This document shows, one piece after another, positions 7,526 to 59,481 of a stretch of DNA of 64,000 bases. Location of the stretch: contig CM119266.1 of the NCBI GenBank assembly GCA_051294375.1, forward strand, positions 6,899,431 through 6,963,430, written 5' to 3'. Both the position numbers and the translations under genes were made by a program. The notes under the pieces are model-generated. The model saw nothing but the letters and a program-made list of their open reading frames with translations, had not been told where the DNA came from and searched no databases. Position 1 is the stretch's first letter. Every line of letters starts with the position of its first letter. Origin of the DNA: Paraspadella gotoi. Taxonomy: Eukaryota > Animalia > Chaetognatha.

Positions 7526-10500
7526 CTTCCCCCTCTTGCTATCCGTCTCACTCTCTCATCTCCTTCTCCATCTTACTTTCCGACTTCAGGTTAACTGCGA
7601 CTTTCCTCCGATCTGCAAAGGAGTTTGTCAGGCTGACCTCACCACAGGAAGGAAAGGATCGGGATGGGTCTGCGAGGACGGTGAGTTTTGATGAAGATGA
7701 TGATGATGATGATGATGATCAATATGATATTAGTGACAATAATGTTGAAGTAAAATTGATTATCAATTAAGGAAAAATTATAACGTTAAACTTCTAGAGT
7801 TACTACATTACATTCTCTTAACATTAAATGAAACTACAGCAATATGCAAATGAGATTAAAGGACTCCATCATGGTAATTCTAATGATGATATAGTTGATG
7901 ATTAGTGACGATTTTAATGATGATAATAATGATGTCCATGATTTTAATGACTACAATGTTTTTGATAATCGAGAAACCAAAATCATTCGAGCAAAAAAAA
8001 ATTGTAATTATTTGAAAATGACATTTTTTTCGTCAGTTGGATCCAAATCTGGAGAAAATCAAGGAGGTAACGTATCTGTATACTGTAAGAGACAAGACGT
8101 ACAGGAAAGCCACCCGATATTCGCGCACTTACCTTTCGTCTCTGGTGTCAGAACTGTAACAATCGTCTGTAACAATCTTAACTAACTGGTGACAGCGATT
8201 TAAAACAAATAAAAATACACCAGAAAATGACAAAAATCAGCACCATATTAGAAAAAAAAATCGATTTTATGTTTAGTACAATTTTTCTTAAAACAAAAGA
8301 TAACGATTTCCGGAAATCAAATTTAGGCTGCCAAATAATTAAAAAATGAAGTTAATAATATTTTATGATTGATTTTTTCATTTCATTCATTTTTTATTGC
8401 ATAAATTTATTCACAACCCTCAGAAAATCGGAATCGGCCCAGAAATTACGGTCGAATGAGAGGTAAAAACGATTTTTTAAAAATATTTTTTTTGATAAGT
8501 TTTATTATCTTTTTCAATCATTTTTATTCATTTTTTTACGCAACTAATAAAGATACTCCCAATAAAGATCGTTTAAGACCCGATGGACGTAGCAAAGGTA
8601 CCTTTATAGCCTATAGTTTACAATCATTTACATATGACATGAAAATGATTTAAAATTATTTGAAATTATTAATTTTCTCTGTCCATTTTTTTGTCCTTCT
8701 CCTAAAGGGAAACCTAACAAATCTGACAAAGATAAACATAGTCACGGCGCCAGTAGCCCAGGTAGTCAATTAGACTTACTCAGTAATTATCAAACAGAAG
8801 AATGAATAGTATCAAAATATTGTAGCTTAGTTAATATCTTTTGAACTTTTTTCTTTTTAAAGAAACACCCCAAAAAGACAGATGGAAAAACGATGACGGT
8901 AGCCAAGGTACTTTTCAAAAAACTTTCAAAAGAATTTTTACTTGTTATTAAATTATTTTCAAAATCTTCATACAAATTTTTTCAAACCTTTTTTTTCTTT
9001 TTAAAGAAACACCCAAAAAAGAAAGTTGGAAAAACAATGACGGTAAGCCAAGGTACTCTTCAAAAACTCCTTAAAAAATGTCACTTGCCATAAATTTAAA
9101 CATAAGAATATTTTAATTATTTTAAATATAAATTTGTGACGAGTGAATATCTTTCTAACACTTTATTTTCTTTTAAAGAAACACCGCCAAAGACAGGATG
9201 GAACAAAGATGACGGTAGCCAAGGTACTCGTTAAAAACTTTATAGAAAATCCATACCTTGCACTATATATTTATTATTTTTTAAATTTATTCCAAGTTTT
9301 GCCAAATAAATCTTTTTAATTTTTTTTTTAATTTTCAAAGATAAGTCCAAAAAGGAAGATGGAAAAATGAAGGCGGTAGCCAAGGTACACTTCAAAAGGC
9401 TTCATAGAAAATATATAATTCGCAATTAATTTAAACATAAAAATATTTTTTATTCTTTTTTTGTCTTTGAATTTCCCTCTTGAAGGAAGACCTGATAATA
9501 CGAAATCTAGTAATAATGAGAGTAGCCAAGGTAGTTTTTTTTAACTTAAACTTCAGTAGATTAGTTGTTATATTTTTATATGACACAATGAAAATAACGT
9601 GGCCGAAACGGTTCGTGCTGATTTTGTCCTTTAAAATTGTTCTGAGCCAATTAATTGATCATTACTTTGGTAATATGTGCGATATACACTACTGGAATTA
9701 CTGTATCTGACCATACCCTTGACCATCAACAAAAAAGCTAACTAGATCAAATAGTAAAAAAGATGAAGCAATAGCTCGAAACGCTTAAAATTTAGACCAT
9801 TGCTTTTATAAATGCAAAAAAATATTAATATTATTAAAACAAAACTTAACGATAACCTAATAGTTAACCGAGACCAAGATGAATATTTTTTACCCATCAT
9901 TCCTCAATTTATATGAATCATTTGTTTGTAATTAGTCAATTAATCTAATAACAATATGACAAATTCATTTTCAATTTTCTTTTATGAATGGAAGTTTTCT
10001 CTGCTTACTCCCTTGTGTCTATTATTTAATATTTTAAAGTATTTTCAAAAACCTTATATAATACATATTTTTCACTTTTTTCAATTCTTTCAACAAAACA
10101 ACATCATAAAAACATTTAAATTAATTAAAAAATGATTGAATGATTTTGGAAAAAAATATTTTGAAACTTGAGAATATGGATTATGAGTCAGGAAAAAATT
10201 TGCAATTTCTACAAAAATCAGCCTCTACCTTTGATTTTTCTAGAGCTGATTTTTTTATTTTTTTGATATTTTGATTTCTATGCAAAACCATTATTCTCAA
10301 TGAGCATAGGTCGGGACGAATTTTTTCCCAACAATTTGAAAAAATTTCAACTTTTCTAATTAGGCTTTTTGGGGAAATAAATAAATAAATTATTATACGA
10401 TGGTACATCGAAAGTGATATATCTCTAAATGACAAAAAATTTTCTTCAAGTTTTATTTGAAATTTAAGTATTGTACCAATAGAAATAAGTGAGATACTCC

Positions 10501-13500
10501 CGCTTGCCCAAATTTTTATTTAACAAGATTTGTACTGCTAATTTAAAAAAAGTATTTTTTAAATTAACTTTTGAAAGAAAAGAGGTAGCAAGGTGGATGT
10601 GGTATCAATTAAAGCCCTAATCATGGACACCTTTCTAAAAGAGTTTTATAAATTAAATCATAAATCTTTACACAGCTTTTGTTAAATCAGAGTTAAAAGT
10701 ATAACAGTTTTTTGCTTTAAAATTTCAATGAAGGCATATGAAATTTTTTCTTTTCTTGTATAATTTGAAAAAGGAAAAACTGAATTACATTTTGTTTATT
10801 ATTAAATTTTTTTATTCCATAAATTGCTTATATTTTTCAGTTAAAGTAAAAAACAAGCAAAAATTTATGTTATAGCTTGATAAAATGTATTTTTAAATAT
10901 TAAAAATAATAATACAAAAATGTTTTCAGCTTGATAAACAGCTGGACATCTACTTCTTGTCTGTGAAAAAAAATCGTCATTTTTCATATCTTAACTGCAA
11001 ACTAAAAGCTTGACACACTGCTTGTTTATCATAATAAGTTGTAAAAATTATATAGCTGGTAACATATTTGACAAAGCAAAACATTATGAGTTAAATTGTA
11101 TTGATAATTTTTTTTTAATATAGCAAGGAATTTAATTCTATTATTTATCATCCATTTTAATTAAGAAAAATATTTCTCGTAATAGCCCATTGGAAAGGGT
11201 TCATTGACTGACTTAATGATGAAATTTTTAGATTTCTTACTGCCCCCATTTCACAAATATAAAAGGTCATGGTTATCAGGTCAATAAGTCAATTATCTGT
11301 ACCCTTTCTGCAACCTGCATTCCAAATTTTTTTTTCCCTTTCAATGTATTAAATAAAAAAAATTATTTGAGAGAACAATCGCGTGGAGAATGCCATTGTA
11401 GCCTTAGTTACCCCTTCCCGATCGAATTTTTAAATGAGGTTTTTTTCGCTCTATTTGAGACATAACACTACTATTGGACTATTATTTTTTTTTTCTATTA
11501 CAATCTATGAATAAATATGAATAAGTAACTTTTTAAAAAAATTATCATCTTTCACCCTATATTCAGTCATATCTAAAAAACAAAAAAGATTTTGCATTGA
11601 TATTTTGGATATCACATATGAACTATAACGTTTAAAAAATAAAAAAAATATAATAATATTGAACAGTGATTTTTTTAGAGGAACTAGTAACTTCAGTGCC
11701 ATATTGTATTTGTCATATAGAAAAGCAAAAAAGACATTTTCTATCTCTTTCACGTTTGCTTTCCTACCACTAATAAAGAAAAACCACCTAAAGAAAAAAC
11801 TCCGAAAGACAGATGGAAGAACAGTGACAACGTAATTTCAGAAGCATTTTGAGCATTAAAATATATACTATAACCTATGACAAAATACCTGATAAAAAGA
11901 AATCAAGTAGTGACTTTAGTAGGCAAGGTAGTGTTTTTTGACATTGTGTTGGTAGTTCTTAAACCTCTTGGAAAAAATTAAAGATAGAATTTTAGTTGAT
12001 TTTTAATTTGTATTTTTGGTCGCTTAATTGAATTTTTTTTTTTTTACTGTCTTAGGTTCATCGTCTTTGTCTAATCCGAAAGGTACCTAATACCTATAAA
12101 AGTTGATAAATTTTAAATTTTTTTAGCATAAATTTCATAGATTCATCGCTAAGTCCTTATGAAGGTAAGGCAATGATATACACATGTGTGTAAAAGAAAT
12201 TTTAAACTTTGAACCCCTACTATCTCGCTTGTCTGTCGTCCTATGAAGTAAACTTGGATTTATTTCAAAGCCAAGTCAAAAATCTTTCATTTGATCCCAT
12301 GACGAGGTTTCTATGCCTAATATTATAAAAGCTATGCTAAAAATCAAGCAGTTTTTACGAGCTCATCCTTATCCTCGTCCTCTTTTCATAGAGGATAGAG
12401 CTACTCAGCCTAAAGCTACCCAAAAATATTATGAGGAAAATGGATCAAGGTGCTCGCCAGACTGCAACATCATTAAAAATGTCTGGTCAATGAGGGTCAT
12501 GAGGGAGATTTCGCAGTACAATAACACAAAATCTATGAAATAAACAGATCGTAAAGCGCGTTTGGCAGGAGCTGAACCCTTCCTATTTGCGCAGTCTCTA
12601 TGACTCTCTCTCTCCTTATCGTTAGAAGCAAATGGTAGTCTGACAAAGTATTATGTTACTGAATCCTAAAAAGTATTGGTTTCCTTCAAAAAGTTAAATA
12701 AAAGGCTTTTTTTGCACACATGTGCACTTAAGCTTATCTATTTATTTTAAATTCTTAAACTTTCTTATTCTATTTAGCGAAAATTTGAATTATCTACCAA
12801 AAATTCATATCATGTTAAAATATTTTAAATTTTTTTAGATTGCTCCTCATCTCTGCAAGGTAAAACCTTTTTTTACTTTAAAATATAGAATCAAGATTTA
12901 GATAACTCTTTGACATTCTCTCCTTTTAATCAAGGATTATCAAAGTTAGATGGCGAAGATTACTTTTATATTATCAATCAAGGTAACTGTATTAATTCCA
13001 TTTTTAGTTTAGTTTTTATTTTATTAAAGTTTTTATTTATATAATTTAGCTTTTAAACTCTAGTCGCCTCAATTTAATTTCCGGAAATTTTTATTCATGA
13101 CGCCTGTGTCGTACCTCGTATAATATTTTTACAAATAATGAGGTGTTCGCAATCAGACTTAGCGTGGAGTCAGTCCCTTAAAGAAAAATGGAAACAAAAC
13201 TGATTTCTAAACAAAACAAAATAAAAAACCTTAACTTTTGTTGCTATTTTGTTTCTCGTGTCTTCAGAGGAGTGCGACTGCAACCGCAAGGGGAGAAGGT
13301 GAAGGATTGAAGGACGGAAAAGGATGCGGGAAAAACTTTAGAAAAGGTTCCTTTGTCAAATATCAACTCAAAGGGAAATTGTGCGAATCGTTGAAAAAAG
13401 GAGAGAATCAAATCGAACTCAGTTTCAGGTAAAGAAAAGGAAAGCAAACTAAGGAGATACTTTGGCACTTTCTTCCTAAAGCGCCCCATTTTTGATCGTA

Positions 13501-16500
13501 ATACCTAAACTTAACATTAATCTCTTTTTTTTTTTATTTAAGCTGAAATGGAAAACATGGCCGAAATCTTTAATATTTATCTTTTAATCCTCTAAAATAT
13601 TTAGACCTTCTTAAATGCCCATCATTTTTTTATTTGAAAGCTCATCTGATACAAATTAGAACAATTGCATGGACTCCTTTAACTTCAGGACTCGGACCCG
13701 AACGCGAAAATTCTTTTCCACGCGACGTCGAAAAATCTCATCGAGTATATGTCCATCGAAATTATTTCAGAAGAAACTCGTCTACTTTTACAATTTGGGC
13801 GGAGGCGAAGAGGTGAGGGAAAAGGAAAAATATTTATTATTAAAGTGTTAATAAATGTTAGGTTAAAAAAAACTTTAAAAAGGTTGTGGCGAACGGTTGC
13901 TTAGGTAACTTTAAAAGTTTAATTAGTTAAATTAGGTAATGAAGTGACGTGAATTAATAGTAGAAGTCTGTTATTAATTATTCGTTTTTATCTTCACAAC
14001 AACGATCTTTTCAAACAATTATGTAAATCAACCGAGCAAATATATTACAATTTAGATTAGGTTACATTAAAATTACATTAAATTTTCATAACAACATTTC
14101 ACTTCTATCGAGAATAGGTCAAAATCTACTTTGTTTTCTTAACAATGTATTTTTTATAAAAATATACCAATTTCATACTTATTACTAGTCTTATTCTTAT
14201 TCTAAATCATCACCATTTCCAACCCTTTTTTTTTCCGCCAGCGTCTGGAACTGGAAGGCGTGAACGTGGCGGACGGTGAATGGCATCACCTGACCCTCTC
14301 GCGTTACGGCGCCCGAGTCACGATGGCCATCGACGGCGGCGAGGGAGATTTGACTGTGAAGAATGCTCCGATGCCGAACGCTCACGCCGAGATAGAGATC
14401 GATTGTGAAAGAATTTATTTGGGGGCGAAAGTGGATTCGTGGGGAAACTCGGCCGATGTCATTTCCAAGGATTACAAAGATGGTCAGTTGAGAAGAGGGA
14501 GATAATGGATAAGTGGTAGGTGGCCTTTGGCCGATGCCATTAGGTCGGATCATCATGACGGGAGAATTGGGACAAGTGAGATCTTGTTTAAGCCAAATTT
14601 TGAAAATGGCGGACTAGAAATTGAATAAAGATTGAGTCGAGAATGCACCTGGGTCCTGAGCTGAGGGCGAGTGAAATGGTCTTCAATTTGTGAGGAAAGT
14701 TGACCAATTTTGTTTTAAAACTCACTCACGTGATTATATTCACATCCACAGGATGTTTAAAGAACTTCCGTTTCCAATCCGTTCGACTCCCGATCCTCAA
14801 TACATCTCTGACCAATGTCACCATCGTCACAAATAACGTCGACCCCTGTTGCCCCGAATGCAATGAAGACGAGGGCGGTTGCCCGGCTTGCTTCCCTACC
14901 TGCCCATCGAGCATGGTGATAAGAATGTTTAATAATAATAATAATTACAATAATAATAATAATAATATTTTAAAAATTATGCGTGCAACTATGTTTCGAT
15001 AAAAACCTTTTTAAACCGAAACTTGCAAATGAGATTTTTGCGTTCTCTCATTCATCCCCACGCAGACCTGCATTCCCACCTGGCGCGGATCCTCCTGCGG
15101 CTGCAAATGGCCTTACCATCCGCTTCCCGAAAACATCCACAAATGCGTGCTCGATCCCTGCGAACCTCACCCTTGCCACAACGGCAAGTGCGTCGTCAGT
15201 GGCGAGGGATATTATTGCGACTGCTACACCACTGGGTAAGATTTATGCCGATACTAATGTTGGAGCCGCAGCGGGGATTGAGAATGATGCTGTTGTTTAA
15301 TGCTGTTGATGCTCTTCGTTTCTGTCCCGTCTGACGGAGAAAGCTATATTTGTTAGCCGGTCATTATTTATTTTCTTAATTTGGTGCACTAATTTATTGT
15401 TTTAATTTGAACAAAAAAGGCTTATGATTTGTTTTTTGAGAAACTCTTGATGGTATTCCTAGTCAAAAGCTTGGCGCTTGGCTTTTGCCATATTTACTAT
15501 CTGTGATTGAATAGATGCCTTTAACTTACAATACCGCTGTTTTTATAAAATCAGTAGGGCAGGATAGCTATACATGTGGAATTAAATAAATAATTTGCAT
15601 AGTTTGTTAACAATTTTCATATATAGTTTGTTCTTCATTTCATAATTGATGGTAAATCATAATATAATTTTTCCCTAATTGGTTAGTCATTCCTTGATAT
15701 ATTTAAGACATAATCTGCAAAACCTTGCTGGCCACCTTCTGTAAATGCTTGATTTTTTTTTTAATTTATAAAATTGGAATTATTATCTAATATTATATAT
15801 TTTAACAAGGTTACAACTATATTATTGGGTCATTAATAGCTATTAATTATAAATATTTTACACTATTAGAAAACTATATTTATTTTTTTTAATTTAATAT
15901 CCCGGAGTACTACTGAAGACCAAATCTGTTGATCTCGAGTCTTCATCAGCTGATGAAGACTCGAATCAACAGAGTCGAATAAACCATGTAAGTGATATGT
16001 AATAAATAATAAAAAAATTTGTTGTCAAATAAGGCAGGTTGACTTCACCACCAATTTAAACCAATTCCCTAATAAGTTTTTACTTTATATTTAGATTCAA
16101 TATAACCATCGGAACACGCAGTAATGAAAAATAGATACCGTTTAATGGTCAACCAAATTTATGTAACCACTTTTGGCAGCGTATTGGATGTTTATAGAGG
16201 GCGGATCAATATCGATCTATTTGTATGTCGGCGGAAGGGCCAGTCGAACGACAAATTTTAAAGAATCCCGAAAGACTTGGATCTTTGGGATTTGGGTAAA
16301 GATGCGTGATAACGGAACAAGAAGAGATAGAGTAGGGAGGGATATACGACTTTAGTTCTCCCTTCACCGCGTGGAAGCACCAAACTCCACAACATGAGTT
16401 CTCCGGCATTGTGGCCAACTAAACTTTTCGGAGTTCTCTATGGAGGATTGGGATGGTGTTCCATAGCCACCTTCGCTGCACTCGCTCCCAGCACCAGGGC

Positions 16501-19500
16501 AGCACCACTGGGTCCTGGGACGACAGCGTCTCAGCCAGGGGAGCAGGACATAATTGACGAACCGGGAAAGACATTAAAAGGACTGATAAAGTCGGATGGG
16601 CAAAGGTGTGAAGTTTAATGAATTATTATTTTTAATATAATTCACATTTTAAATAAAAATAAAATAGGTTTTTCTTTTATATGTTTTGGATCGTCTTCGA
16701 TCCCTATCGTACTTCGTAATAGGGGGGTTGCGATTGAAGCATGAGAATTCAGCCACAATATTCATTCGTAAATGGGCGGGGAATATCGAGACTTCGGTTT
16801 CCAGTCCCTCAGCGAATTCCTTGCCCTGGTAGGAGCGAGATGATTTGGAGGTGCCGCGAATGGAACGCGCATCAAAAGAGAATTGAGGGCAGGCAGCTGG
16901 GGGAGACGTTGTCTTGAAAGGGAATAGAAGAGAGAGGGCTCAGCACGACGGCGCCGAGAACCCCCACCAGTCGAGGTAAGTCACGACTTCGATCAGCTCT
17001 TCAGTGCACTGAGGTCCTTTGTATCTGCGGGAATGGAGGGAGTTGTTCTAAGTAGGGAAACTGACTACGAATCGAAGCTCGATTTCGAAAACTCGTAATC
17101 CGCTCAATAGCAAAAAAAAAAAAAAAAAAAAAAACTTTTTACTGTCAAATAAATGGAGATAATTATAAAAGCGCTCAAACGTACGGAGGAAAGCAATCAC
17201 CGTTTTAACGTGTTAAAACTGTTACGGCCGCCATTATTTATTACCTTCCTGAATACGAATGTCTTTTCTTCCAAAAACTTTTACCAGTCACCTTTTTTAA
17301 TTTCAATTCTGACCAAATTATATTTCTATTCTCTCGGGATAAAAAAAAAAGCTCAGTGCAAACCGCGGTAACGATACAATACATGATAATAAACACTAAT
17401 TTATAAACACCGAAATATAACGTTTGTAATTTTATAATTTTTCTAAATATTTATAAACAAATTAGCGAATCTGTGCCAATAAGCGAACTCGTTGAGTCTC
17501 GTCACACTCCTGAACTCTACTTACGTGACGCCACTTTTTTTTTTTTGGTCCACGAAAAAAGTGAAGAAAAATTCTTTTAAATTATTTTTAAAAATTGCTC
17601 AAAGANNNNNNNNNNNNNNNNNNNNNNNNNCGCCAATAAGGCCAAGGTCAACGCCAATGCCGCAGCGGCCGCTAATGCCAATGTCAGCGCCAACGCAGCC
17701 GTGGCAGCGAACGTCAGCGTCAACGTCATGGCCGGAGCAGCGGCCAATGGCTTCTTGGCGCGCCGTTGGGCGCAGGCTTTTGGCGGCCAGCGGGCCGCGG
17801 CTAGACGGCCCTGCCATTGGCCGCATGCTCCGGGCCATGACGTTGACGCTGACTTCGCTGCCACGGCTGCCAGTTGCGCGACATTGGCATGTATACTCGG
17901 TTCTCCGCTGCGGCTTGGCTAGTTGACTCTCTGGCCTCTATTGGCGCTTCTGCAGATTCTTTGTTTCCTTTTCGTCCGGTCATACGTCGCTGTCGTTCGT
18001 CGCTGGTCGTCTCGTCTGTATGTTTACGGTCGTCGATTGTATTTTTGGAGTAATGACGTTTGAATGTGTCGCTCTTGAAGTCTTGCCGCCGCGCCGCCAG
18101 CCGGCCGCTCCGCGCCGCGCCACCCCGCGCAATGAACCGCCCTCGGCGCACTTTGACGACTCCCCCTCTGCCGAGCACGACAGATCTTGTATTAATAATA
18201 AAGCACATAAACTAAAAGTGATCATCATATATGAATCTAAAATCAATTGATTACATCTATATACTTTACACGACAGCGTCAACCTGAAAAATGAGTCGGC
18301 GATGGAACAAAGCAGCACCCAGCAGCGCAGCCCAAAGCCGCGCCACAGCACGACTGGCGCGAGAACCCACCCAGTCGACGGTAAGTCACGACGATGCAGC
18401 TCTTCAGTGCACTGAGGTCCTCTTGTATCTTGCGGGAATGGAGGGAGTTGTTCTAAGTAGCGGGAAATGACACTACCGAATCGAAGCTCGAATTTCGAAA
18501 AACCGTAATCCGTCTCAATTAGCAAAAAAAAAAAAAAAACAAAAAAAAACTTTTTACTGTCAATAAATGGAGATAATATAAAAGCGCCTGCAAACGATAC
18601 GGAGGAAAGCGCAATCACCGTTTTAACGTTAGATTAAAACTGTTACGCGCCATTATTTTTATTACCTTACCCTGAATACGAATGTCTTTTCTTCCCAAAA
18701 ACTTTTAACAGTCACCTCTTTTTAATTTTCAATCATTGACCAATTATATTTCTATTCTCTCCGGATTAAAAAAAAAAGGCTCAGTGCAAACCGCCCAGGT
18801 AACGATACAATACATGATAATAAACACTTAATTTATAAAACACGAAATATAACGTTTGTAAGTTTATAAATTTTATCTAAATATGATATAAACAAATTAG
18901 CCGAAATCTGGTGCCAATAAGCGAACTCGTTGAGTCTCGCTCACACTCCTGACTCTACTTACGTGACGCCACTTTTTTTTTTTTGGTCCACGAAAAGAAA
19001 AGTGGAAGAAAAATTGCTTTTAAATTATTTTCTAAAAATGCTCAAAAGAGAACAATACTAAAGCTATCTCGTCAGACCGACAGAAAGCGCAAGCAGCGAT
19101 CAACAGCATTAAACAACAGCATCATTCTCAATCCTTATCCGCTCGCTGCGCTCCAACATTAGTATCGCATAAATCATTAACCCAGTGGTGTTGTAGCAGT
19201 CAGCAATAAATATCCCTCGCCACTGACGGACGCACTTCGCCGTTGTGGCAAAGGGTGAGGTTCGCAGGGATCGAGCACGCATTTGTGGAGTTGTTTCGGG
19301 AAAAGCGGATGGTTAAGGCCATTATGCAGCCGCAGGGAGATCCGCGCCAGGTGGAATGCAGGTCTGCGTGGGATCGATATGCAGAGAACGCAAAAATCTC
19401 GATTTGCAAGTTCGGTTTAAAAAAGGCTTTTTATCGAAACATAGATTGCACGCATATTTTTAAATATTTTATTTATATTATTGAATATTAATATATTAAA

Positions 19501-20664
19501 CATTCTATATCACCATGCTCGCATGGGCGGTAGGGAAGCAAGCGGGCAACCGCCTCGTCTTCATTGATCGGGGCAACAGGGGTCGCGTATATCTCGGTCT
19601 CATTATTGAGTCGGAGTTCGAACGGATTGGAAACGGGAGTTCTTAAACATCCTGTGATGTGAATATAATCAGTGAGTGAGTTTATATAAGATATCAAAAT
19701 CGGTCAAATTTCCTCCACAACATTGAAGAACCATTTCAACTTCGCCCTCCAGCTTGTTCTCGACTCAATTCTTTATTCATTTTCTAGTTCTCCATTTTTC
19801 CAAATTTGGCTTTAAACGAAGACATTCTCACTTTGTCCTCAATTCTCCCGTTCATTATGATCCGACCTAATGGCATTGGCCAAAAGGCCACTACCACTTA
19901 TCCATATATCTCCCTCTCTCAACTACCATCTTTTGTAATCCTTTGGAGATGACATGCGGCCGAGTTTCCCCACGAATCCACTTTCGCCCGCCAAATAAAT
20001 TCTTTCACAAGCGATCTCTATCTCGGCGTGAGCGTTCGACTCGGAGCATCTTACAGTCAAAATCTCCCTCGCCGCCGTTCGATTTGCCATCAGTAGACTC
20101 CGGCGGCGCAGTGTCGCTAACGCCCACCATGAGAGGGTCAGGGTGTGATTGACCATTCACCGTCCGCCACAGTTCACGCCTTCCAGTTTCCAGACGCTGG
20201 CGGAAAAAAAGGGTTGGAAATAATGAATGAATTAGAATTAAGAATAGCACTAGTCAATATGTATGAAATTCTCTCTCTTGNNNNNNNNNNNNNNNNNNNN
20301 NNNNNGTTTGAGTGGGGAAAGGCCAAGCGTGGTTTGGGGGGAAAGGCCAAGGCCATTCAGGATGCCAAGAAGGCCAAGGAGGAGGAGAAGAAAAAGAAGA
20401 GTTAGTTTGAGTGGGGAAAGGCCAAGCGTGGTTTGGGGGGAAAGGCCAAGGTCATTCAGGATGCCAAGAAAGCCAAGGAGGAGAAGAAAAAGAAGAGTGA
20501 GTTTGTGTAGGGAAAGGCCAAGCGTGGATTGGGGGGAAAGACCAAACAGAATGTTGGGAAAGGCCAAAAGGCCTTTGGGGGAAGGCCAAGCAAAGTTTGA
20601 TTAAAGGCCGAGCAGAGTTTGGGAGAAAGAAAAAGCTCTAGCATTGATGGTATATTAGAATATG

Positions 20665-20708
<44 letters not shown>

Positions 20709-23700
20709 AAAAACAGAGGAAGAACCAAGCGACGAATCGTCCTCGGAGGAGGAGGAAGACTCGGGCAGAAGAAAAGCCAATCTCCAACAAAGTAAGTTTT
20801 ACATTTTTAGGTTATATTATTTGAATTAATTAATATTAAATTAAGCGATAGTTTGAAGTGCACTAATCGACACGACACATTAACCCCATTTTATATTCTT
20901 TTGTTTNNNNNNNNNNTTTTTTTTGGTTTCGCGGTTTTTTATCATTCGATGCTCTTTTGTTCCTCTTTTCTTTTTTTTATTTGTATCGCAAATCCTTGAC
21001 ATTATTATAATCAGGCGGTGTCAAGTTATCTTTTCCGGCAAAACCCAAAGAGATTAAACCGCTTTTGAAAAATGGTAGGTTCTTAACACAAAAAAANNNN
21101 NNNNNNNNNNNNNNNNNNNNNNNNNNNNNNNNNNNNNNNNNNNNNNNNNNNNNNNNNNNNNNNNNNNNNNNNNNNNNNNNNNNNNNNNNNNNNNNNNNNN
21201 NNNNNNNNNNNNNNNNNNNNNNNNNNNNNNNNNNNNNNNNNNNNNNNNNNNNNNNNNNNNNNNNNNNNNNNNNNNNNNNNNNNNNNNNNNNNNNNNNNNN
21301 NNNNNNNNNNNNNNNNNNNNNNNNNNNNNNNNNNNNNNNNNNNNNNNNNNNNNNNNNNNNNNNNNNNAAAATATATACTTATCACTCTGTAAACTCGGGG
21401 GAAATTTTTTATTTTTTTCTACACCGAATTTCCAAAGGCCACGTTCCACGTTCAGGACCGACATATTGGGATATTTTTGTAGATCCTAGCAAGGCAAGGC
21501 GGCCCTTTCTCCGCCCGAATGTCCGACTGTCTTCATTCAATTAGTCCGATGTTCACTTTTTTCCCATTGATGTCATATTTTCGGTTTTTCGGAGCATGGT
21601 TTACTGTTTTCTTTTTGTCTTATGTTCACGATTCTCCGTGATGTTTTTCCGTTTCGCTGATACTTGAGCTATCACGGCCGCTGCCGATGTGAGAGGAGAA
21701 GGAGAGAGAGACGGGCGAGTGATAACAAAAAAATTATCTGAGAGAGCTCGCGTGAATGAGTTGACAGAAATTCGACAGTGAAAAAACAGTGGAAAAAAAC
21801 ATGGTGGGAAAAAAACAGATTGACGATAATATTTTTTCAAAAAGTTACTAAAGATTTTTTTAAAAAAAATTACTTACTGTAGATTTCAAACAAAGAGAAA
21901 GTAAAAAAGACATTGAGTCAGACACATACTGTAGTATTGTTTTGTTGAAAAAAGTAGATTATTCTAAACATGTAATATAAATATTTTATTTTTCGTCGGT
22001 TTTAAAAAAATAATCTTTATTAAAATTATATTTTAGAATGCCCAAGATTTGTTTTCTTTTTAAAGTAGTTTTGTTAAAGAAAACGATGAGACCTTAGAAT
22101 CGTGTTTTAAAGTGCAAGCAGAGCGAAAGCATGTGAATTGAGTGAAATTTAAAGTGAATTCGGGAAAGCCGTTTCCCATTTCAAAAGTTACATTTAACAG
22201 AAAGATTAGGCAAAACATTTATATTATTACAAAATTATTTTCTTAATTCTTTTCTTATTTCATTTATTATTTTGATTTTTAAAAACTAAGGCGAACGATT
22301 TAAGGGTCAGTAAACTTTCGATGTTTTATTCATTACAAAAGAGAAACGTATTTTGTGGTACACTTTTTTCGAAAAAACCCATAATTTCCCCCCTCAAAAA
22401 ACTGGGAGTAATGCATAGATGAAATTTGAATATAATTGGACTCATTGAACTAGAGAGAGATGAATAACATGGAGCCAGTGATTCATTCAATTTCTGAGTT
22501 GGGAGAATAGATATTAAACAATCTGTTGCTTAATTTTAATTGTACAAAACCTACCATCGTGTAGAAGAGGTTTAGTTTCTTTGACTTAGCCGGCTACAGC
22601 TTTAGCGCCTAACCATTACAAACGAAAAAGAGAAACGGTGCGAAATAATTTCATATTTAATGAATGATTAAAATTAATAATTAAAAAAAAATTTTAAATA
22701 TTAATTATTAAATGACCGGAAACGTTCTTCTATATACGAAATTTTACGTCTGGCGAAAATTACGTCGTATGTTTTGAAAATATTATTTAAAATAAAGTTT
22801 TGAGAAAACCTACATTCATTGTTGACGGTTTAGCCTGATTAAGGTTTAGCACCTCTTGCCATTATTCTTGTTTGGGAAACAAATATGGTCACACATTCGT
22901 GTGTTTTTAGTCGGTTCTCTTTATTGTCCCTACGTCTTCACTTTGAATCTAGGGAAGGACTCGCCCCGATTCCAATTAATTAATTGAATCAAAAGAAGAA
23001 GAGGGATAATTCAGCGACTGTCTACATGTCCACACTTCTGATACAAAAGCTCCAATGGAATTATAACACTGTGCTGGCTGCTCACGCACCCAAAAGAGGA
23101 ACTCTGCGCTTCAGTCAAGATGAGGCTGATGCAAACCCGGGACTGTCTCGAGGCGATCTCAATTGCCTCCTTGAAGTTGCTTAAAACATTCCCAACAATA
23201 TCACATCGTGAACGTAAAATTCGGTGCACATTCAACTGGACTTTTTCTTAGGAGGCTCCTACTTCTAACATATATCCTCTAATATGAGTTCATTTACCCG
23301 ATTCTATCACACGAACGCTGGAAACGTGGCCTTTCGGGAAAAATTCGGTTTAAGGTTTGTGTAGAAAAAAATAAAAATTCCCCCGAGGTTTACAGATGTG
23401 ATATAGTATATATTTTACCAACTGCAGCTACATGGTGCTTTTATATAAAATTTCCGCTTTACGCTTTTATTGTTCTAACGTCAATAAAAAAGTACAACGA
23501 CATTACATATTTTTGTAAAAAATTTTTTTTTGTGTTAAGAACCCTTTACCATTATTGTCTCAAAAGCGGTTTAATCTCTTTGTGTTTTGCCGGAAAAAGA
23601 TAGCCTTGGACACCGCCTTGCTGTGAGTAATAAGTGTCAAGGGATTTGCGATTACAAATAAAAAAAAAGAAAAGGGAAATATATATAAAGCAGCATCGAA

Positions 23701-26700
23701 TGCATAAAAAAACGTCGAAACCCAAATAAAAAAACAAAAAAAAAACAAGGATAGATATAAAATTGGCGGTTGAGATGTCGTGTCGGAATTATAGTGCACC
23801 TTCAAATACTATCGACTTAAAATTTTAAATATAAATTAATGTCAAATAATATAACCTAAATGTTAAAACTTACTGTGGTGTTGGGCAGATTGCGCTTTTT
23901 CGGGTTTGCACCGCAGATCTAATTCCATCCTTCGGCTCGAGGACGATTTCGGTCGACTTAATGGTTTCTTCCTCTAACGTTTTTGTGTGTGAGCAGAGGA
24001 GAGAGAGAAGATCCGACGAGAGAGTAGAAGAGAGACGATGANNNNNNNNNNNNNNNNNNNNNNNNNCCTTGCTGCAAAGTAGGAGTTTAATGCTGCAATG
24101 ACAGCTTAAAATGCTGCAATACTGAAAAGAAGTCTGTCAATGATGTAATGAAGGCTGTAAATGCTGCAATAAAGCCTACGAATGTTTTTAATATTCAATA
24201 AAGATTGCGAAATTTGCGGTGAAGACTAAGAATGCTACAGTGAAGGCTGGAAATGCTGAAAAATAGACTGTCAATGCCGCAATAAATGCTGTGAAAGTGT
24301 GAATACTGTAAAGACGACGATTTGCGAATCAAAGATTTCGCTTCAATTCGATGTTCTTTTGTTTTTCTGAGGCGGCGTCAAACTCGACTTCGCCGCCCTC
24401 ACCGCCAGCGCCAACATGAACAACGCTTCCAACATGGCGGCCATCACAGCCGGTGACTCTGCCTCCAGCGGCGGATTCGGCGCCGCCTTGGCCGCCGCCA
24501 ACGCCGGAGCTGGCGCCGGAGCTGGCGCCGGCGTAGGAGTTAGTGCGGGAGCTGGCGCCGGGGCTGGCGCCGGGGCTGGCGCCGGGGCTGGCGCGGGAAT
24601 CGGCGCCGGCGCCGCTGCCGGCCCCGCCGCCGCCGCCGCCGCTGCCAAGAACGCCGCGTTGGCGCGAGCGGCAGCGATGGCGCAGGCGCAGGCGGCGGCG
24701 GAAGCGGAAGCGGGAATGATAGAGAGTGAGTTGATTAGTTTTGAGATTCAAATGTAATATTAATAAATTAGACAATTATTTTAGTTATTCACTAATTGTT
24801 AATTCATATATACTAAATACTATACCGTTCTATTTACATGTATTCTACGGTATGTATTATGTTATTACGTACATTTTACTGTAAATGTAAAATTCTTTTT
24901 AAAGACATGGACAAGGCGGAGATGGGTCGGTTCATCATGTCACAACTCCTCGACATGGATCACGACAGTTCTTGGTTCCCTGGCGACGCCGGACTCGTTT
25001 ATCAAGACGAAGGCGACGGTTCGATCGCCGAGTCTCTCTCTTCGCTCTCGACCAACGGATCCGAAGCCGACGCCGCCGACTTGGCCGCCATGGCTGCTTA
25101 TCACGGGATCAGCGTGTCCGCCGCCGGAACGATGTCGAATAGTGAGAAAACCATAGGATTTCTTTCATCATTTGTTCTGTTTTTTTGTTTTGTTTTTGTT
25201 TTTTTTTGTTTTATGTTTCGGTCATTTGTTTTGATTTTTTTATGTTTTGCTTTGGTTTTTGTCTGTTTATTTTCTTTTTTGTTTTTTGCTGTTGTTATTA
25301 GTTTATTGTTGTTGCTGCTTTTTTTGTTATTGTTGTCGTTATAGTTGTTGTTGTTGCTGTAGGATGCGAAATATTTTCTGTTCATTGAGTTTATTTCTTT
25401 TAGGAGTTTCATGCTTCAATCTGTGAATATCCTAATACAATCATTTATTAATTTTTGATAATTTATTAATTTATTCCTTTTTTTTTTTCATTTAATTTTT
25501 CGCGGTCGTTTTCAAATTCTCTCTCATGTATTTTAAATATTCTTACTTAAAAATGTAATTAGTTATCCACTCAATTAAACGTTCCCTTCCCAAGTAACTT
25601 CATGAGACGACTTACCACAAGTCTCTCTCTCTAAACCCTTCCACTCTCCTGTTTCTCTGAGCCGGTCTATTCCACCGTATTTNNNNNNNNNNCATCATTT
25701 GTTCTTTTTTTTTGTTTTGTTTTTGTTTTTTGTTTTTTATGTTTCGGTCATTTGTTTTGTTTTTTTATGTTTTGCTTTGGTTTTTGTCTCTTTATTTTCC
25801 TTTTTGTTTTTTGTTGTTGTTATTAGTTTATTGTTGTTGCTGCTTTTTTTGTTATTGTTGTCGTTATAGTTGTTGTTGTTGTTGTTGGATGCGATATATT
25901 TTCTGTTCATTGAGTTTATTTCTTTTAAGATTTCATGCTTCAATCTGTCAATATTCTAATACAATCATTTATTAATTTTTGCTAATTTATTAATTTATTC
26001 CTTTTTTTTTATTTAATTTTTCGCGGTCGTTTTCAAATTCTCTCTCTTGTATTTTAAATATTCTTACTTAAAAATTTAATTAGTTATCCACTAAATTAAA
26101 CGTTCCCTTCCCAAGTAACTTCATTTTTTTATTCAATCACTCATTTATATTTGTCTTTTCATTAATTAATTAATTAATTCATTCATTAATTTCATTTCAT
26201 TTCCCCCTTCTAGGCCGACCGCCGAGCCGAGGCGACAACCTCCAATCGCCGATGATGAACATGGATTCAGCGATGAACATGAACATGAACATGGGAATGA
26301 ACATGAACATGGCCGGCATGTCCGGCATGGGCGGCGGCATGGGCGGAGGAATGGGCGGCGGCATGGGCGGAATGGGTATGACCACACTCCCGATGGCTGC
26401 ACCGACTGTGGGTTAGTGTCACAGAAATTAGATCGGGGCTTTTTTTGGAGGTCGGTGGCGTCGGCGATCTCTCGTCTAGTTGCAGTTTCATTTAAATTAG
26501 TTATCATTATTAATTAATTGAATTTATTATTTATGTAATTTTAGATTACTCATTTTTAAGTCCGCTTAAGACAGAGAGATGACGGAGAGAAGATGAGAGG
26601 CTGGTAGAGATTGAGAGAGAGACCGATCGAGATTAGGAGAGTGAGACGAGAGAGCACAGAGAGAGAGAGCGACGGCTAATCGCGTTTCCAGTAAACATTA

Positions 26701-28297
26701 AACAATTATCTAACTAATTTTTTCGATCAAATCATTTTATCGTTCTCACGTTAGAACCCGTCGTTGGTAAGAAGAGATTATATCACGTTGAAGTGATAAA
26801 CTATCACATTGAAGTGATGAAAAAATATCTCGTTGAAATGATAAAAAGTATCACCGTGACGTGATTTTGCGCACACGAAATGCGATCTCGTTCTCCTTTG
26901 GCTTATTACGATATAATTAATGCCGGATAATTTTCTTTTAATAGATATTTCAATTGGGTGGTTTGATTTTCGAAATTGAATCTAAATCCATTTTTTTGGA
27001 TTTGTTGTCAGCGGGTACTCGAGGTTTTAATACGTTCTTAATCCTTTTAATTTATAATTTATAATTACGTATACTCAATAAATTAATTTAACATATAACA
27101 AAATAGTAATTAACAATTGTTAACAAACGTTTTTCTTGCCGTCAATCTCCCTCCTAACGCCCCCCCCCAAAATCTGTTGTCCGTTCAGAACATGATGTCA
27201 ATTCGATCTTCCATGTCGAGTTTGTCATCTTTGCCGGCACATGACAGATTTGACAGAGCCTCGAGTCCCCATCGATCACAGTATTATAATCGCTACGGTA
27301 TCCAACATACGATGCTCTAATTTCATGATGTATTAAATTAATTAACTCTAGGGAAACGCATGATTTTTTTTTTTCAAAGTTCGAAAATTTTCTACTGTTT
27401 TTCTACCTTTTTTCATTGAGCTGTGAAGGTACAGGAAAAGACACCTGAAAGCTGACCTCATGATTGCGTTAGTGACATGTCTATGAATTGTGACTCGTTG
27501 ATTGACTTGACTGACACAGAGATAAACATAAAGAAACACAATGAGTATAAAGATAATGATAATGAACATTTTTCATGTCAAAACATTTCTCTTTTTTCTT
27601 TCAAAATCAAATTGGTTTTAATTTTTCTCATCGATGGATTTAAATTCCTATTTGTTTCTTTTTTTCTCTAGATTCTTTATTATTTTTTTCAGGAGTCCCC
27701 ATGATGCCCATGGGCTACGGCACCATGCCCATGATGATGGCCCCACCCACGATGATGATGGCGCAACCGACCATGATGATGGCGCAACCGGTGAGTTCAG
27801 TAACGTCACGTCCGATTTGATGGCGTAACTTTGGAAACCTTTAAATTTTAATTGTGTTTTACGTAGTTGATTTTTATCACTATAGTGAATAGTCGTAGAA
27901 AATTAGGCGGAAGATGATTAAATCAAAAATTTGAATTATACATAATTATACGTCCATAATAATTCTAACGAAAGTTTGTGATTTTTCTCGACGGCCACGG
28001 CAGCCAAATTGGTTCGACATGTTTAATTACGTAAGAGAGTTCGATTTTATAAATAAATGAACAAAGTGACAAAAAAATATTTTGGTGTTGGTTTTTCTCT
28101 TTCCCTCGGAATTCTCATTTCTTACTTTCTGTCTGTCTGACTCTGACGGTATCTGATTTTTTTTTCGAAAACTGTTAGACAATCTGTGTATTATACAATT
28201 TTATGAAACAAATTTTATCAATTTGTTTTTTTAAAAAAATGTTAATCTGTCTCAAGGGTATCGTCATTTTAGGAAAACGCATTAATACGAATTGTCT

Positions 28298-32750: not shown

Positions 32751-35269
32751 ATGAAAAAGGACATTTTTGTCATCATAATTCTCATACTTGCTGCGGGTAA
32801 GTAATATTCATTTTTTTTCTCATGTAAAACTATTAAAGTATTAAATGTTTTTTTTTCGAATTTCAAATTCATAACTCACCTTATGACATAAGGTGAGTTT
32901 TGGTTTTGATTATAAAACTTATATATAAACTTGAATTTACCTTTTTGGAAATTTAATCATATTAATTTCCAAAGCTATCTATATTTAAACCTTTTACTTA
33001 TATTGTTTTAACTAAGAGAATTTTATCCATTATTTCAATTTTTATTTTTTTACACAGATACGGACTGCCACAAATCCAAGAACACCGTATATAAAATTAA
33101 GGAATTTTACAGACAAGGTAAACTTTCTTGATGTTAATTAATCATTATTTAAATATTCAATTATATCAATTAATATTAGTACTTCATAAAATTAAAAACG
33201 TCAAGAGACAGCCACTTACCTCTCTCTTCCTCTTCCACGCCCCCCCTCTTCCAGACCCATGTTACCTAGAATGCGAGTCCGGCCAAGAGTCCCTCCACAG
33301 CCTCCAATTCTTCACCATCACAGACAAACGCGTCTGCTTCTCCAAACCTTTCGTCAACCCCCCCGCCTTCACTTGGGGCATCACCAAGGCCGTCGACGTC
33401 GAAACCATGGGCCCCACTTGGGCCAACGTCTGGCTCAAGAGTGGCGTCGACCGAAAAGGCGCCGACATGGGCGTCATGGTCCACGACAGCGGAAACAAGA
33501 ATAATCAAGTGGAATTTTCTTGGATGGCCTGCGGGTATACAAGAAGAAGGAGAGGGTGGAACTGGAAAGCCAAAAAAAAGGGAGGGAAGGGGAAAAAGAA
33601 AAAAGGAAAGGGAAAGAACAATGATAAAAAAGGAAAAAACAAGGGAGGAAAGGGAAAGAACAATATTGAAAAGGGAAAACACAAGGGAGGAAAGGGAAAA
33701 GACGATAATAAAAAGGGAAAGAACAAGGGAGGAAAGGGAAAAGAACAATATTGAAAAGGAAAACACAGGGAGGAAAGGGGAAAAGAACGATAATAAAAAG
33801 GGAAAGAACAAGGGAGGAAAGGGAAAGAACAATATTGAAAAGGGAAAACACAAGGGAGGAAAGGGAAAGACGACGATAATAAAAAGGGAAAAAACAAGGG
33901 AGAAAGGGAAAGAACAATATTGAAAAAGGGAAAACACAAGGGAGGAAAGGGAAAGAACGATAATAAAAAGGAAAAAACAAGGGAGGAAAGGGAAAAGAAC
34001 AATATTGAAAAGGGAAAACCAAAGGAGAGGAAAGGGAAAGAACGATAATAAAAAAGGAAAAAACAAGGGGAAGGGAAACGGCAAGGAGGAAAACACGATA
34101 ATAAAAAAGGAAAAACAAAAAGGGGAATACAGGAAAATTCACAAGGGAGGAAATGGAAAAGATGATATTGATGAAAAACACAAGGGAAAAAATGGAAAGC
34201 ACCATCATCATAAGGGAAATCACAAGGGAGGAAAAGGAAAAGATGATGATGATGATGATGATGATGATAAAACACAAGGGAAAAAATGGAAAGCACCATC
34301 ATCATAAAGAGGAATCACAAGGGAGGAAATGGAAAAGATGAGATTGTATGATGATGATGAAAAACACAAGGGAAAAATGGAAAGCACCATCATCATAGGA
34401 AATCACAAGGGAGAAATGGAAAAGATGATGATGATGATGATGAAAAACACAAGGGAAAAAAAAGGAAAGACCATCATCATAAAAGAAATCACAAGGGAGG
34501 AAATGATGAAAAGATGATGATGATGATGATGATGATGTAAAACCACGAGGGAAAAAATGGAAAGCACCATCATCATAAAGGAATCACGAAGGAGGAAATG
34601 GAAAAGATGATGATGATGATGATGATTGATGATGAAAACACAAGGGAAAAAATGGAAAGCACCATCATCATAGGGAAATCACAAGGGAGGAAAATGGAAA
34701 AGATGATGATGGATGATGAAAAACACAAGGAAAAAAATGGAAAGCACCATCATCATAAGGGAAATCACAAGGGAGGGGAAATGGAAGATGATGATGTGAT
34801 GAAAAACACAAGGGAAAAAATGGAAAGCACCACTCATCATAAGGGAAATCACAAGGAGGGAAATGGAAAAGATGATGATGATGATGAAAAACACAAGGGA
34901 AAAAAATGGAAAGCACCATCATCATAAGGGAAATCACAAGGGAGGAATGGAAAAGATGATGATGATGATGAAAAAACACAAGGGAAAAAATGGAAAGCAC
35001 CATCATCATAAGGGAAATCAACAGGGAGGAAATGGAAAAGATGATGATGATGATGAAAAACACAAGGGAAAAAATGGGTAAAGCACCATCATCATAAGGG
35101 AAATCACAAGGGAGGAAAGGGAAAAAGGGCAGAGGAGACAGAAGAGGGGGGAAAAGAAATGAAGAAGGAATGGGCAAAAATTGATATGATGGTAAAAGGG
35201 AAAGTTGATGGTGTGAAGGCGAATGATGAAAGTAAAAAGGATGAAGAAAGAAGACGCGAATTATTATAA
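32751..35269 (+). CDS. Secreted H-type lectin domain protein with long Lys/Gly- and His/Asp-rich repetitive C-terminal tail
   Basis: Exon 1 (32751-32796) encodes the signal peptide MKKDIFVIIILILAA. Exon 2 is 33058-33117. Exon 3 starts at 33255 with CFSKPFVNPPAFTWGI...VEFSWMACG, an H_lectin-like pattern. It runs into the repeats GGKGKNNIEKGKHK and GGNGKDDDDDEKHKGKNGKHHHHKGNHK, then a unique tail ending ...DEERRRELL* at 35269. AATAAA follows near 35440. Homopolymer indels break the frame within the repeats. Confidence 0.72.
33570..35120 (+). repeat. Coding tandem repeat: about 42-bp units grading into about 84-bp units
   Basis: Recurring units cacaagggaggaaagggaaagaac and aaaaatggaaagcaccatcatcataagggaaatcacaagggaggaaatggaaaagatgatgatgat. 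Confidence 0.9.
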
Positions 35270-37860: not shown

Positions 37861-39631
37861 ATGTCGAATCAACACAATCAAGTAAGCGTTGCACAATTGC
37901 ACATTGTTTAACTGGAACATAATTCGACTTAATATACATTCGTTAGTAAAAATTATTTTCTTTTTTTCCTCACATCACTCCTTTTTCCTCTCTTCCAGCT
38001 CCCTTCCTCCCGTATTCCCCCACCCCCTCCCCCCGAACGAATCCCGCGTCCCCCTCTCCACCACCCCAGGGGATTTCCAGGTTTCCCCGGGGGACGACAA
38101 ATTCCCCTGGGGGAACTTCAAGAGAGACTCAAGGAAAGGTTTTCCTTCTCGCGACAGGAGAACGAAGATTTCGTGGGAAGCACCGGCATTATCGTCGGTG
38201 AGTTGATGGACTCTGTCTCTCTTGCTATTTCTTTCTCTCTCTCTCTTTTCTCTCTCTCTCTCTCTCCTCTCTCTCTCCTCTCTCTCCCCTTTCTCTCTCT
38301 CTCTCTCAAACATTAATTTCGTGGAAGACACGGACATTATGTCGGTGGGTTGGATGACTCTGTCTCTCTTGCTATTTCTTTCTCTCTCTCTCTTTTGCTC
38401 TCTCTCTCTCTCTCTCTCTCCTTCTCTCTCTCTCTCTCTCTCTCTCTCCCTTTCTCTCTCTCTCTCTCAAACATTATTTCTTTTTATTCCATGCAGGCAG
38501 CTTACTGTGGAAAAGACGCCCAACTCGAGTCTCTCATAGAGAAAATTGCCAAAGGAACTAACCCTGACGGCGGCGGCGGCGGCGGCGGCGGCGAGGACGG
38601 CAGAAGCAGAGTCGTCAATGAGCTGAACAAACGCAATCGCTTTGGATGCACGGCACTGAGACTCGCTGCCACGAGTAAGTATAGTTAATTCAACCCTGAG
38701 CAAATCCTTACCCCAATTTCTTAACTCACCCTTGATACTCAACAGCCGGTCAACCCCTCTGCCTGACCCGCATCATCAACGAAGGCGCGGACGTCGACAT
38801 CAGCGATGTCAAAGCGCAGACGCCGCTCTTTGTCGCCATTGCCAACAACCATCTGCAATGCGCTGAGATTCTGCTCAAGGCTGGTGAGTTTGCAATGACT
38901 CAATTAATGACAATCTGTCATAAGATTTTGATCAAGGCTGGACAGTTTGAGCCGAGCTTCAATCCGCAACTGCAAATGATTTTTTTTTTTTCTAGCAGAA
39001 ATCAACATAATGTCTGGCACGTATAGTGCTTTGAAATGATTGCAACAAGTCCGATATTTTAGTTTGGCTTCATTTACTTTCTCATCACCCTTTGCCCCTT
39101 TAGGAGCGCACCCAGACGGAAATCCCGACAACCTGAGCACTCCTCTCTACATGTGCGCCAACGCGGGTTGGCTTGAAGGACTTGAGGTGAGATAAGTTGA
39201 ATCATTCGTTGTCGTCGTTGTTTAGTATAATACTTATTTAATATATGTTAACTTTATGCCACTATTTTCCAAGAACGATCAATTTTTATGCTTTAAACCT
39301 AAAAATTAACTTATTTCAGAATTTAAACGCTTTTCCGAAAATTTATCCTAGAAAAAGAAGCAAAAATATAATCGTTGTTATCCTTGCGCTTCACTTTTTC
39401 ATATCAATCACGTTTTTTTCCGATTAAACTAACTCTTTTTTTTTCAGCTCCTCATCCGCTGGGGCGCCTCCCTGAATCGCCCCCCTTACCACCACGCCAC
39501 TTTCCTCACCTCCCCGCTGCACATCGCCCTCGCCTACGGCAACCGCCATTGCTTCGAGGCGCTGCTGCTGGCCGGGGCGGATCCTGATCACTGCTGCGGC
39601 GGGCGACACCGAAGATGGTGGGGGTGAGGAG

Positions 39632-39723
<92 letters not shown>

Positions 39724-40690: not shown

Positions 40691-41544
40691 AGCGTCAATC
40701 CGCGTTAATGTCATTTAATGTTAAACGTTGGGTCAATTTATTCTGTATTTTGGGGGAAATTCTTCTCTGTTCGGTCTGATTGCACATGTATGACTTTCCT
40801 CATACAATTCCCTATTATCGTTTCTGCCTTTTGGTTCAAAAATAAAAGTTCCGTATTAAATATTATTTTTACTTTTAGTAATACTAGAAGAAATTGTTAC
40901 GAGAATCGTTAAGTAAATATTTACAAATGTTTGAGCAAATCCTTTGGCAAATCCTCTCGAATCACAACAGTCGACATCAGGACCAGCCCGTTGCGTGTTT
41001 TTAGAAAGTCCCATTGTTTCCCGGGCAAACGATGGATAAATAATTAAATATATTTTTGTTCCCATTTAAAAAAACAAAAAAAATTTAAGGGTGTTATATT
41101 ATAAACTTAAAGTTATTAAATCAAGCTTTAAAATGAAATTAAACAAGGTTTCATCAAAGCATTAGTTATCTTGTCATTTTTCTTCATCCTCATACGAACT
41201 TGTAAATTGTCTCATTCTTCTCCTGCATTTCTTTCTTGTGATTTCCTTTTCCGCCGTCTTCGACATTCAGCTCTCCGCTTTTCCCTCCTTAACCCTTAAC
41301 CCCTAACTCCTAACCCTTAACCCTCCTATAATTTACTCCGTTCCTTCCTTCCCTACTCCATCAACCTCCTCCTCATATCAAATCATTTCATCTTCCTCCT
41401 CATACTTATCCTCGACTCATCCTCCTCCTCATCTCATCTTCCTCCTCATCTCATCCTCATCTCATATTCCTCCTCGACTCATCCTCCTCCTCGAGTCATC
41501 CTCCTCTTCATCTCATCTTCTTCCTCATCCTCATCTCATCCTCC

Positions 41545-47074: not shown

Positions 47075-47158
<84 letters not shown>

Positions 47159-49202: not shown

Positions 49203-59481
<10,279 letters not shown>

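Follow-up and report, generated by a model that had tools for sequence, protein, structure and literature searches.

Type III classical cadherins combine 14-17 extracellular cadherin repeats with a membrane-proximal NC-CE1-LG1-CE2-LG2-CE3 series, a single transmembrane segment and a classical cytoplasmic domain (PMC5473995). Atomic force microscopy shows the epidermal growth factor (EGF)/laminin-G globule as distinct from the adhesive repeats, and the CE/LG region of DN-cadherin makes up a globule close to the membrane that stands apart from its adhesive unit (PMC8325961). In CELSR1, a related receptor, the EGF domain between two laminin-G domains packs with LamG2 in a compact adhesion-regulating module (PMC12038025). 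Arthropod N-cadherin possesses three mutually exclusive exon pairs and a 12-nucleotide (nt) micro-exon, 7a' (PMC2655722). The adhesion receptor CD44 has an optional exon cluster in its membrane-proximal ectodomain; the shortest, all-skipped form is common, and inclusion lengthens a disordered region (PMC10376988). Projectin has up to 21 alternatively spliced PEVK exons, some of only 24 nt, in a fast-evolving low-complexity segment of 34-624 residues (PMC3835035), and schistosome micro-exon genes (MEGs) contain runs of very small symmetric exons, one such run being joined to an ordinary domain in the composite VAL-6 (PMC4350168). The locus described here lies in a 64,000-nt stretch of the chaetognath Paraspadella gotoi (contig CM119266.1, positions 6,899,431 to 6,963,430; hereafter the window), in a gene that by its sequence is a divergent type III-like classical cadherin. 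One of its introns, 7681-13267, contains a tandem array of small exons that would interrupt CE2, the second EGF-like domain.

A preliminary description of the window had listed 12 units and three imperfect ones in this intron. All 12 are present, with the peptides given for them, between two forward-strand cadherin exons; each is a multiple of three nt in length, is stop-free in phase 1 and has AG..G|GT borders. The imperfect units were also found (9341-9384, 11779-11832 and 11883-11927), and the in-frame set comprises 14 phase 1-1 units of 21-54 nt in tandem. The units had been called microexons, about 15 in number; RNA joints identify units 1-6 as real exons (vide infra), but no more than 4 of the 14 have a length of 30 nt or less, and most are mini-exons rather than strict microexons. 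Under a simple splice-site filter, which was fixed after the units had been seen, the intron holds 24 candidate donors, and at 15 of them an in-frame unit free of stops ends. The comparison with shuffled introns that had been proposed for such units gave an expectation of 5.1 donors (maximum 13) and 0.86 +/- 0.94 in-frame units (maximum 5) over 500 block-wise dinucleotide shuffles. Under five other filter settings, 35, 26, 16, 21 and 9 in-frame units were counted, against maxima of 30, 21, 8, 14 and 2 in 200 shuffles. The opposite strand of the intron yields two units under the same filter; elsewhere in the window, 20 of 22 tiles of 5.6 kb hold 0-4, and two forward-strand tiles overlapping the array hold 11 and 5. 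The array is real. No units were found within the repetitive stretch that cuts it in two (Table 1), and the candidates at 11232-11279 and 12399-12449 were discarded, both lying in repeated DNA.

The use of these units was assessed in the assembled contigs of X1, a single public run from one study, the type of which is guessed to be RNA and is not on record. Runs X2 and X3, from other organisms, yielded nothing of use. The X1 contigs have GT..AG joints at ordinary exons on both sides of the array and match those exons nearly letter for letter, and are therefore taken as spliced RNA from the same or a very close species. One joint, 8066>13268 at a contig depth of 143, connects unit 1 directly to the downstream exon and skips units 2-15. 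Four others, 8462>8553, 8597>8708, 8761>8863 and 8907>9007 (depths 4, 4, 4.1 and 4.2), link units 2-3-4-5-6 in order. Skipping and inclusion therefore both occur, and the RNA joints exclude both a constant 7680>13268 junction and constitutive inclusion of every unit, the two outcomes on which the preliminary description would have fallen. Mutually exclusive use is likewise ruled out, as units 2-3, 3-4, 4-5 and 5-6 are joined together, the paralogues 5 and 6 among them. The joints also confirm the use of AAG acceptors at units 3-6.

Five contig ends provide indirect hints, the reading of which assumes a k=31 assembly logic: all lie where branching at unit borders would place them. A 7680>8037 splice is compatible with the ends at 8065 and 7680. 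The start at 13267 agrees with a minor splice whose donor ends in ACG (7680, 9042 or 11832), and splicing of units 14 and 15 would account for the ends at 12860 and 12953. Four X1 joints beside simple repeats had been removed, probably including those from 7680.

Table 1. Features of the cadherin array and its host gene (positions within the window).
Feature	Position	Strand	Evidence
Upstream constitutive exon, first half of CE2, phase 1 end	7590..7680	+	Frame continuous with RNA-joined upstream exons; end of a 1190-nt RNA contig at 7680 by arithmetic
Unit 1, 30 nt, VGSKSGENQG, probable core exon, CE2 C3-C4 hairpin	8037..8066	+	RNA joint 8066>13268, depth 143; type III CE2 alignment; 7680>8037 inferred from contig end at 8065
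Unit 2, 39 nt, Arg-rich	8424..8462	+	RNA joint 8462>8553, depth 4; acceptor from sequence
Unit 3, 45 nt, repeat family D2	8553..8597	+	RNA joints at both borders
Unit 4, 54 nt	8708..8761	+	RNA joints at both borders
Unit 5, 45 nt, repeat family	8863..8907	+	RNA joints at both borders
Unit 6, 36 nt to donor 9042 or 46 nt to paralogous donor 9052	9007..9042	+	Acceptor in RNA joint 8907>9007
Unit 7, 45 nt, repeat family, 89% identical to unit 5	9179..9223	+	Sequence
Unit 8, 44 nt as assembled, 39 nt in frame from 9346; possible assembly indel	9341..9384	+	Sequence
Unit 9, 45 nt	9486..9530	+	Sequence
Repetitive intronic stretch cutting the array in two, probable mobile-element insertions	9537..11738	.	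Summed depth of many diverged contigs 125-1163
Unit 10, 54 nt, repeat family D2	11779..11832	+	Donor complete with one extra G of RNA-run contig
Unit 11, apparently decayed paralogue of unit 9, acceptor lost	11883..11927	+	73% identical to unit 9; AG absent in assembly and RNA-run contig
Unit 12, 27 nt	12056..12082	+	Sequence
Unit 13, 24 nt	12141..12164	+	Sequence; RNA-run allele differs at 3 of 24 bases
Unit 14, 21 nt, one Cys	12839..12859	+	Sequence; contig end at 12860, the expected 14>15 branch point (indirect)
Unit 15, 48 nt, C-terminal half aromatic	12935..12982	+	Sequence; contig start at 12953, 30 bases before donor (indirect)
Downstream constitutive exon, CE2 end and LG2 start	13268..13428	+	RNA joints 8066>13268 and 13428>13689; two 1-base assembly deletions relative to RNA
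Classical cadherin cytoplasmic domain exon (PF01049)	24905..25140	+	Pfam, E 6.9e-8, 32.9 bits against a curated cut-off of 24; link to ectodomain exons inferred from order and strand

Unit 1 appears to differ from the rest. Among 27 homologues (from bivalves, a limpet and midges, a very redundant set), the CE2 C3-C4 spacing is 8-13 residues in all 27; in this gene it is 14 with unit 1 and 4 without it. VG[S/T] follows C3 in the CE2 domains of fly DN-cadherin and spider Pt1-cadherin (PMC5473995), and unit 1 begins with the same VG[S/T]. On the basis of the spacing and this start, unit 1 is therefore probably a core exon that supplies the C3-C4 hairpin of CE2 and lies outside the variable cassette. 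Two alignments disagree on the earlier CE2 cysteines, which are rearranged relative to the type III homologues, but both set unit 1 just before C4. Of the variable array first proposed, units 2-15, which the 8066>13268 joint shows not to be constitutive, thus probably make up the optional part, inserting up to 174 residues at the end of the hairpin. A CE2 insert is absent from all 27 homologues of the same redundant set, and four oyster isoforms differ only by inserts of 5-6 residues near the N-terminus, not in CE2.

Within the block, units 3, 5, 6, 7, 8 and 10 form a single repeat family, in which four members lie at intervals of 144-172 bp, and units 9 and 11 are paralogues of each other; units 2, 4 and 12-15 are unrelated or show only faint likeness. 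The exons of units 5, 6 and 7 are 74-89% alike, against 56-67% for their flanking introns, a pattern consistent with constraint on the exons. AAG acceptors precede 9 of the 14 units, and many unit donors read GTAC or GTAG. Splice sites of this kind are read as weak, which fits default skipping. The AAG acceptors had earlier been likened to those of ordinary exons, which is true of the cytoplasmic exon at 24905 but of none of the nine RNA-supported constitutive exons. UGC upstream of the acceptor, the eMIC/Srrm4-type neural microexon signal, was found at only 2 of the 14 units, giving no sign of that type of regulation.

Together the 14 in-frame units encode 184 residues (174 without unit 1), rich in Ser, Lys, Asn, Asp, Gly and Pro, with 36 K/R, 30 D/E, 15% Ser and 21 order-promoting residues. 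The charged, disordered insert that had been proposed is thus hydrophilic and of mixed charge, and its disorder is a prediction from composition. There is no furin-type RxxR in the insert and only one SG, so that specific cleavage or glycosaminoglycan attachment is unsupported.

The explanation preferred here, which is given slightly better than an even chance, is that CE2 is interrupted by about 13 optional mini-exons with weak splice sites, that one RNA form skips the block and another joins neighbouring exons, and that inclusion would likely add up to about 174 residues, predicted to be disordered and of mixed charge. Weak sites would make skipping of the block the default, and the block would be switched on in some tissue or stage. 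Once included, it would mainly be spliced as stretches of neighbouring exons, so that one long isoform or a few graded ones result. The loop would then project from the CE2 hairpin at a point flanked by the two laminin-G domains, within the globule next to the membrane and at a distance from the adhesive cadherin repeats. It may loosen or space the globule, with effects on the strength of adhesion, on lateral packing or on shedding rather than on the specificity of binding. By analogy with DN-cadherin and CELSR1, a long CE2 loop is more likely to change packing, spacing or shedding than the choice of partner. The block itself may have grown by tandem duplication of a 150-170 bp exon-plus-intron unit together with the gain of unrelated small exons.

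Several observations weigh against this explanation. Among the X1 joints listed there is no 8066>8424, post-unit-6 or unit 15>13268 joint, and therefore no contig ties the chain of units into a full mRNA; units 7-15 have no direct RNA joint in these contigs, in which rare variants are lost and from which records were filtered, so that missing joints for those units are not evidence of absence. Depths are unbalanced: the flanks stand at 361 upstream and 384 downstream, whereas the joints into 13268 amount to about 165. Intron contigs that are unspliced within the array reach 5-11, against 4 for the spliced chain. Contig depth in one run is a rough, poor measure of level, and no inclusion level can therefore be derived from these values. 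Paralogous units differ mostly at amino-acid-changing codons (five of the seven differing codons between units 5 and 7), and one unit, unit 11, looks decayed.

An alternative is that splicing of the block is leaky or transient. The units would then be exonised fragments and products of tandem duplication, whose working splice sites are used in nuclear intermediates or in rare mRNAs to little or no functional effect. The low depth of the chain relative to both the skip form and the unspliced contigs, the lack of a listed joint from it to either flank, the unit without an acceptor, the repetitive insertion that splits the array and the mostly non-synonymous substitutions between paralogues all point in that direction. 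However, in-frame, stop-free units exceed the shuffles in all six filter settings, unrelated units of 21, 24, 27, 39, 48 and 54 nt are all in frame, and the exons are more alike than their introns; the low level in one run would equally be given by a tissue-restricted isoform. Leaky splicing is regarded as unlikely.

A further consideration is that every intact unit is 3n and phase 1-1, so that any subset would remain in frame. Cells might then choose different subsets and produce hundreds to thousands of ectodomain variants, as schistosome MEGs do, with 13 independently skippable exons and internal donors setting the length and charge of the globule per cell or cell type. Units 5 and 7 do contain additional in-frame internal donors, the paralogues diverge mainly in amino acids, and the absence of skip joints proves nothing in contigs that lose rare variants. 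A MEG-like cassette of this kind in a classical cadherin is nevertheless thought quite unlikely, and the earlier statement that any subset can be spliced finds no support so far: all four joints inside the block connect neighbouring units at near-equal depth, and no joint skipping a unit within it is among those listed. The site is far from the adhesive cadherin repeats (PMC8325961), and low-complexity peptides would presumably make poor determinants of specificity. The 3n length of the units does not decide between these readings, because each exon gained or duplicated singly must keep the frame. If true, an independently skippable cassette would be a third route to adhesion-receptor diversity, beside exon choice in Dscam and promoter choice in the protocadherins.

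The chain of units could also belong to a transcript with a different end: it might continue into a retained intron or stop at a local poly(A) site, the product being a truncated, secreted ectodomain, or it might start from an internal promoter. This would explain why neither exon 13268 nor unit 1 is connected to the chain by a listed joint, and one contig does extend without splicing from unit 1 as far as the donor of unit 2 (8037-8462). This reading is held to be very unlikely. Against it, splicing of units 14 and 15 would account for the contig ends at 12860 and 12953, and every unit preserves the reading frame of the downstream exon, something that a terminal path would not require.

Some irregularities of the locus lie in the assembly, which contains indel errors. 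As assembled, exon 13268-13428 read in phase 1 runs into a stop once 10 codons have passed. In the RNA contig a further G stands after 13289 and another after 13300; the frame of this exon is open only with these two bases, a correction to the preliminary description. The following exon likewise requires two frame changes. An extra G behind 11831 in an RNA-run contig completes the unit 10 donor. Because of such indels, some of the imperfect units may be sequencing errors; unit 11 looks decayed in both sources, as its acceptor AG is missing from the assembly and the RNA-run contig alike. An error-rich inverted copy (14169-17603 against 18346-20270, 85-89% with many gaps, palindromic centre 17631-17946) is probably a fold-back long-read artefact, with LG2/CE3 exons duplicated on the minus strand.

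The identity of the host gene is based on Pfam domains occurring in the order cadherin, Ig_Shg (NC), EGF, two laminin-G and classical cytoplasmic domain, although the Ig_Shg match, at 26.4 bits, is slightly below the cut-off of 27. The membrane-proximal NC-CE1-LG1-CE2-LG2-CE3 order is present, with a collinear alignment to P0094 (E 5e-60), and RNA joints connect CE1 through to LG2. The window begins inside the gene and has one weak cadherin repeat match, at 1046-1366; a transmembrane exon was not located after CE3, where 15.4-24.9 kb holds the fold-back duplicate and N gaps. The nearest full-length named match is a scallop 'putative neural-cadherin 2' (28% over 508 columns); the more similar relatives, at 40-50%, are short fragments without a name, none of which extends over CE2. 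With the LG2 exon as query, no close full-length orthologue was among the best 150 of 164 HMMER matches, and none of 100 candidates from a word-based protein search matched; for the cytoplasmic exon, one of 395 candidates did, an unnamed 74% fragment. The one match of a metagenome scan, of 28 residues, was rejected as an orthologue, as it sits in a densely coding contig.

Other features of this gene were observed in passing. The CE3 region at 14752-15236 has an unusual Cys-rich start in common with an unnamed marine protein fragment, P0022 (46% identical), a likeness that points to an undescribed divergent cadherin lineage. A 12-nt candidate micro-exon (1869-1880, CAG/GTAAGG borders) lies in frame between two ectodomain exons; CadN too has a 12-nt micro-exon (PMC2655722). 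After CE3 there is a possible small Ser/Asp/Glu-rich exon with a GTAAGT donor at 15906-15988, and a similar stretch near 20716-20792. The open stretches 24371-24757, 26214-26416 and 27693-27790 around the cytoplasmic exon are Ala/Gly-rich or Met/Gly-rich and suggest an unusually long cadherin tail of low complexity.

Further along the window, a tandem repeat of about 84 bp (33587-35125) has long Lys/Gly/Asn/Asp-rich open frames and follows a cysteine-containing N-terminal stretch at 33122. The neighbouring genes, judged by eye from the text of open reading frames, resemble an ankyrin/SOCS-box protein (38600-40700, +), a DEG/ENaC channel (42900-47700, -) and an SLC12 cation-chloride transporter (51000-58900, -).

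The role of the EGF/laminin-G globule in ancestral-type cadherins is poorly understood, and a natural splice switch that adds 0 to about 174 flexible residues in the middle of it would be a ready-made probe of its function. The locus also captures a variable-exon block in the course of both growth and loss: duplicated and unrelated units occur together with one copy that has decayed. Gene prediction would likely miss such exons, and similar blocks may be hidden elsewhere.

In its domain order, NC-CE1-LG1-CE2-LG2-CE3 with a classical cytoplasmic domain, the gene resembles Drosophila DN-cadherin, spider Pt1 and Pt2 and the bivalve 'neural-cadherin' proteins (PMC5473995), but it is only 28% identical to its best full-length match, and the 27 homologues lack a CE2 insert. 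In the open-access listings searched, no such block was reported for a classical cadherin; the type III alignment figures in the supplement of PMC5473995 (files 6, 8 and 10), which lay outside that search, could show CE2 inserts in other arthropods. Arthropod N-cadherin is also a type III cadherin with an alternatively spliced ectodomain and one micro-exon (PMC2655722); its exons, however, interchange and encode cadherin-repeat and transmembrane parts, whereas here many small exons are additive within CE2, and the rule of one exon per transcript that holds for Dscam1 and CadN is not followed.

The MEGs share the tandem arrangement of small symmetric exons, seen here as phase 1-1 units, but the coding region of this gene is not made up mostly of tiny exons, and the units contribute at most 184 residues to a large multidomain protein. 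As to the single-exon skipping of MEGs, the joints listed here are a whole-block skip and joins between neighbours, from contigs in which rare variants are lost. Projectin and titin offer a parallel, in that their PEVK arrays of small exons tune the length of a low-complexity segment, although those are intracellular elastic muscle proteins of PEVK composition for which many isoforms have been demonstrated. CD44 provides the parallel of an optional exon cluster in the membrane-proximal ectodomain of an adhesion receptor, and as in CD44 and PEVK-type systems the all-skipped form is the commonest here, by the rough measure of contig depth. CD44 is an unrelated protein whose variant exons are longer and lie in a stalk, whereas these exons of 21-54 nt lie inside an EGF-like domain. 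By these analogies, the block appears to work like the variant exons of CD44 and the PEVK exons of projectin.

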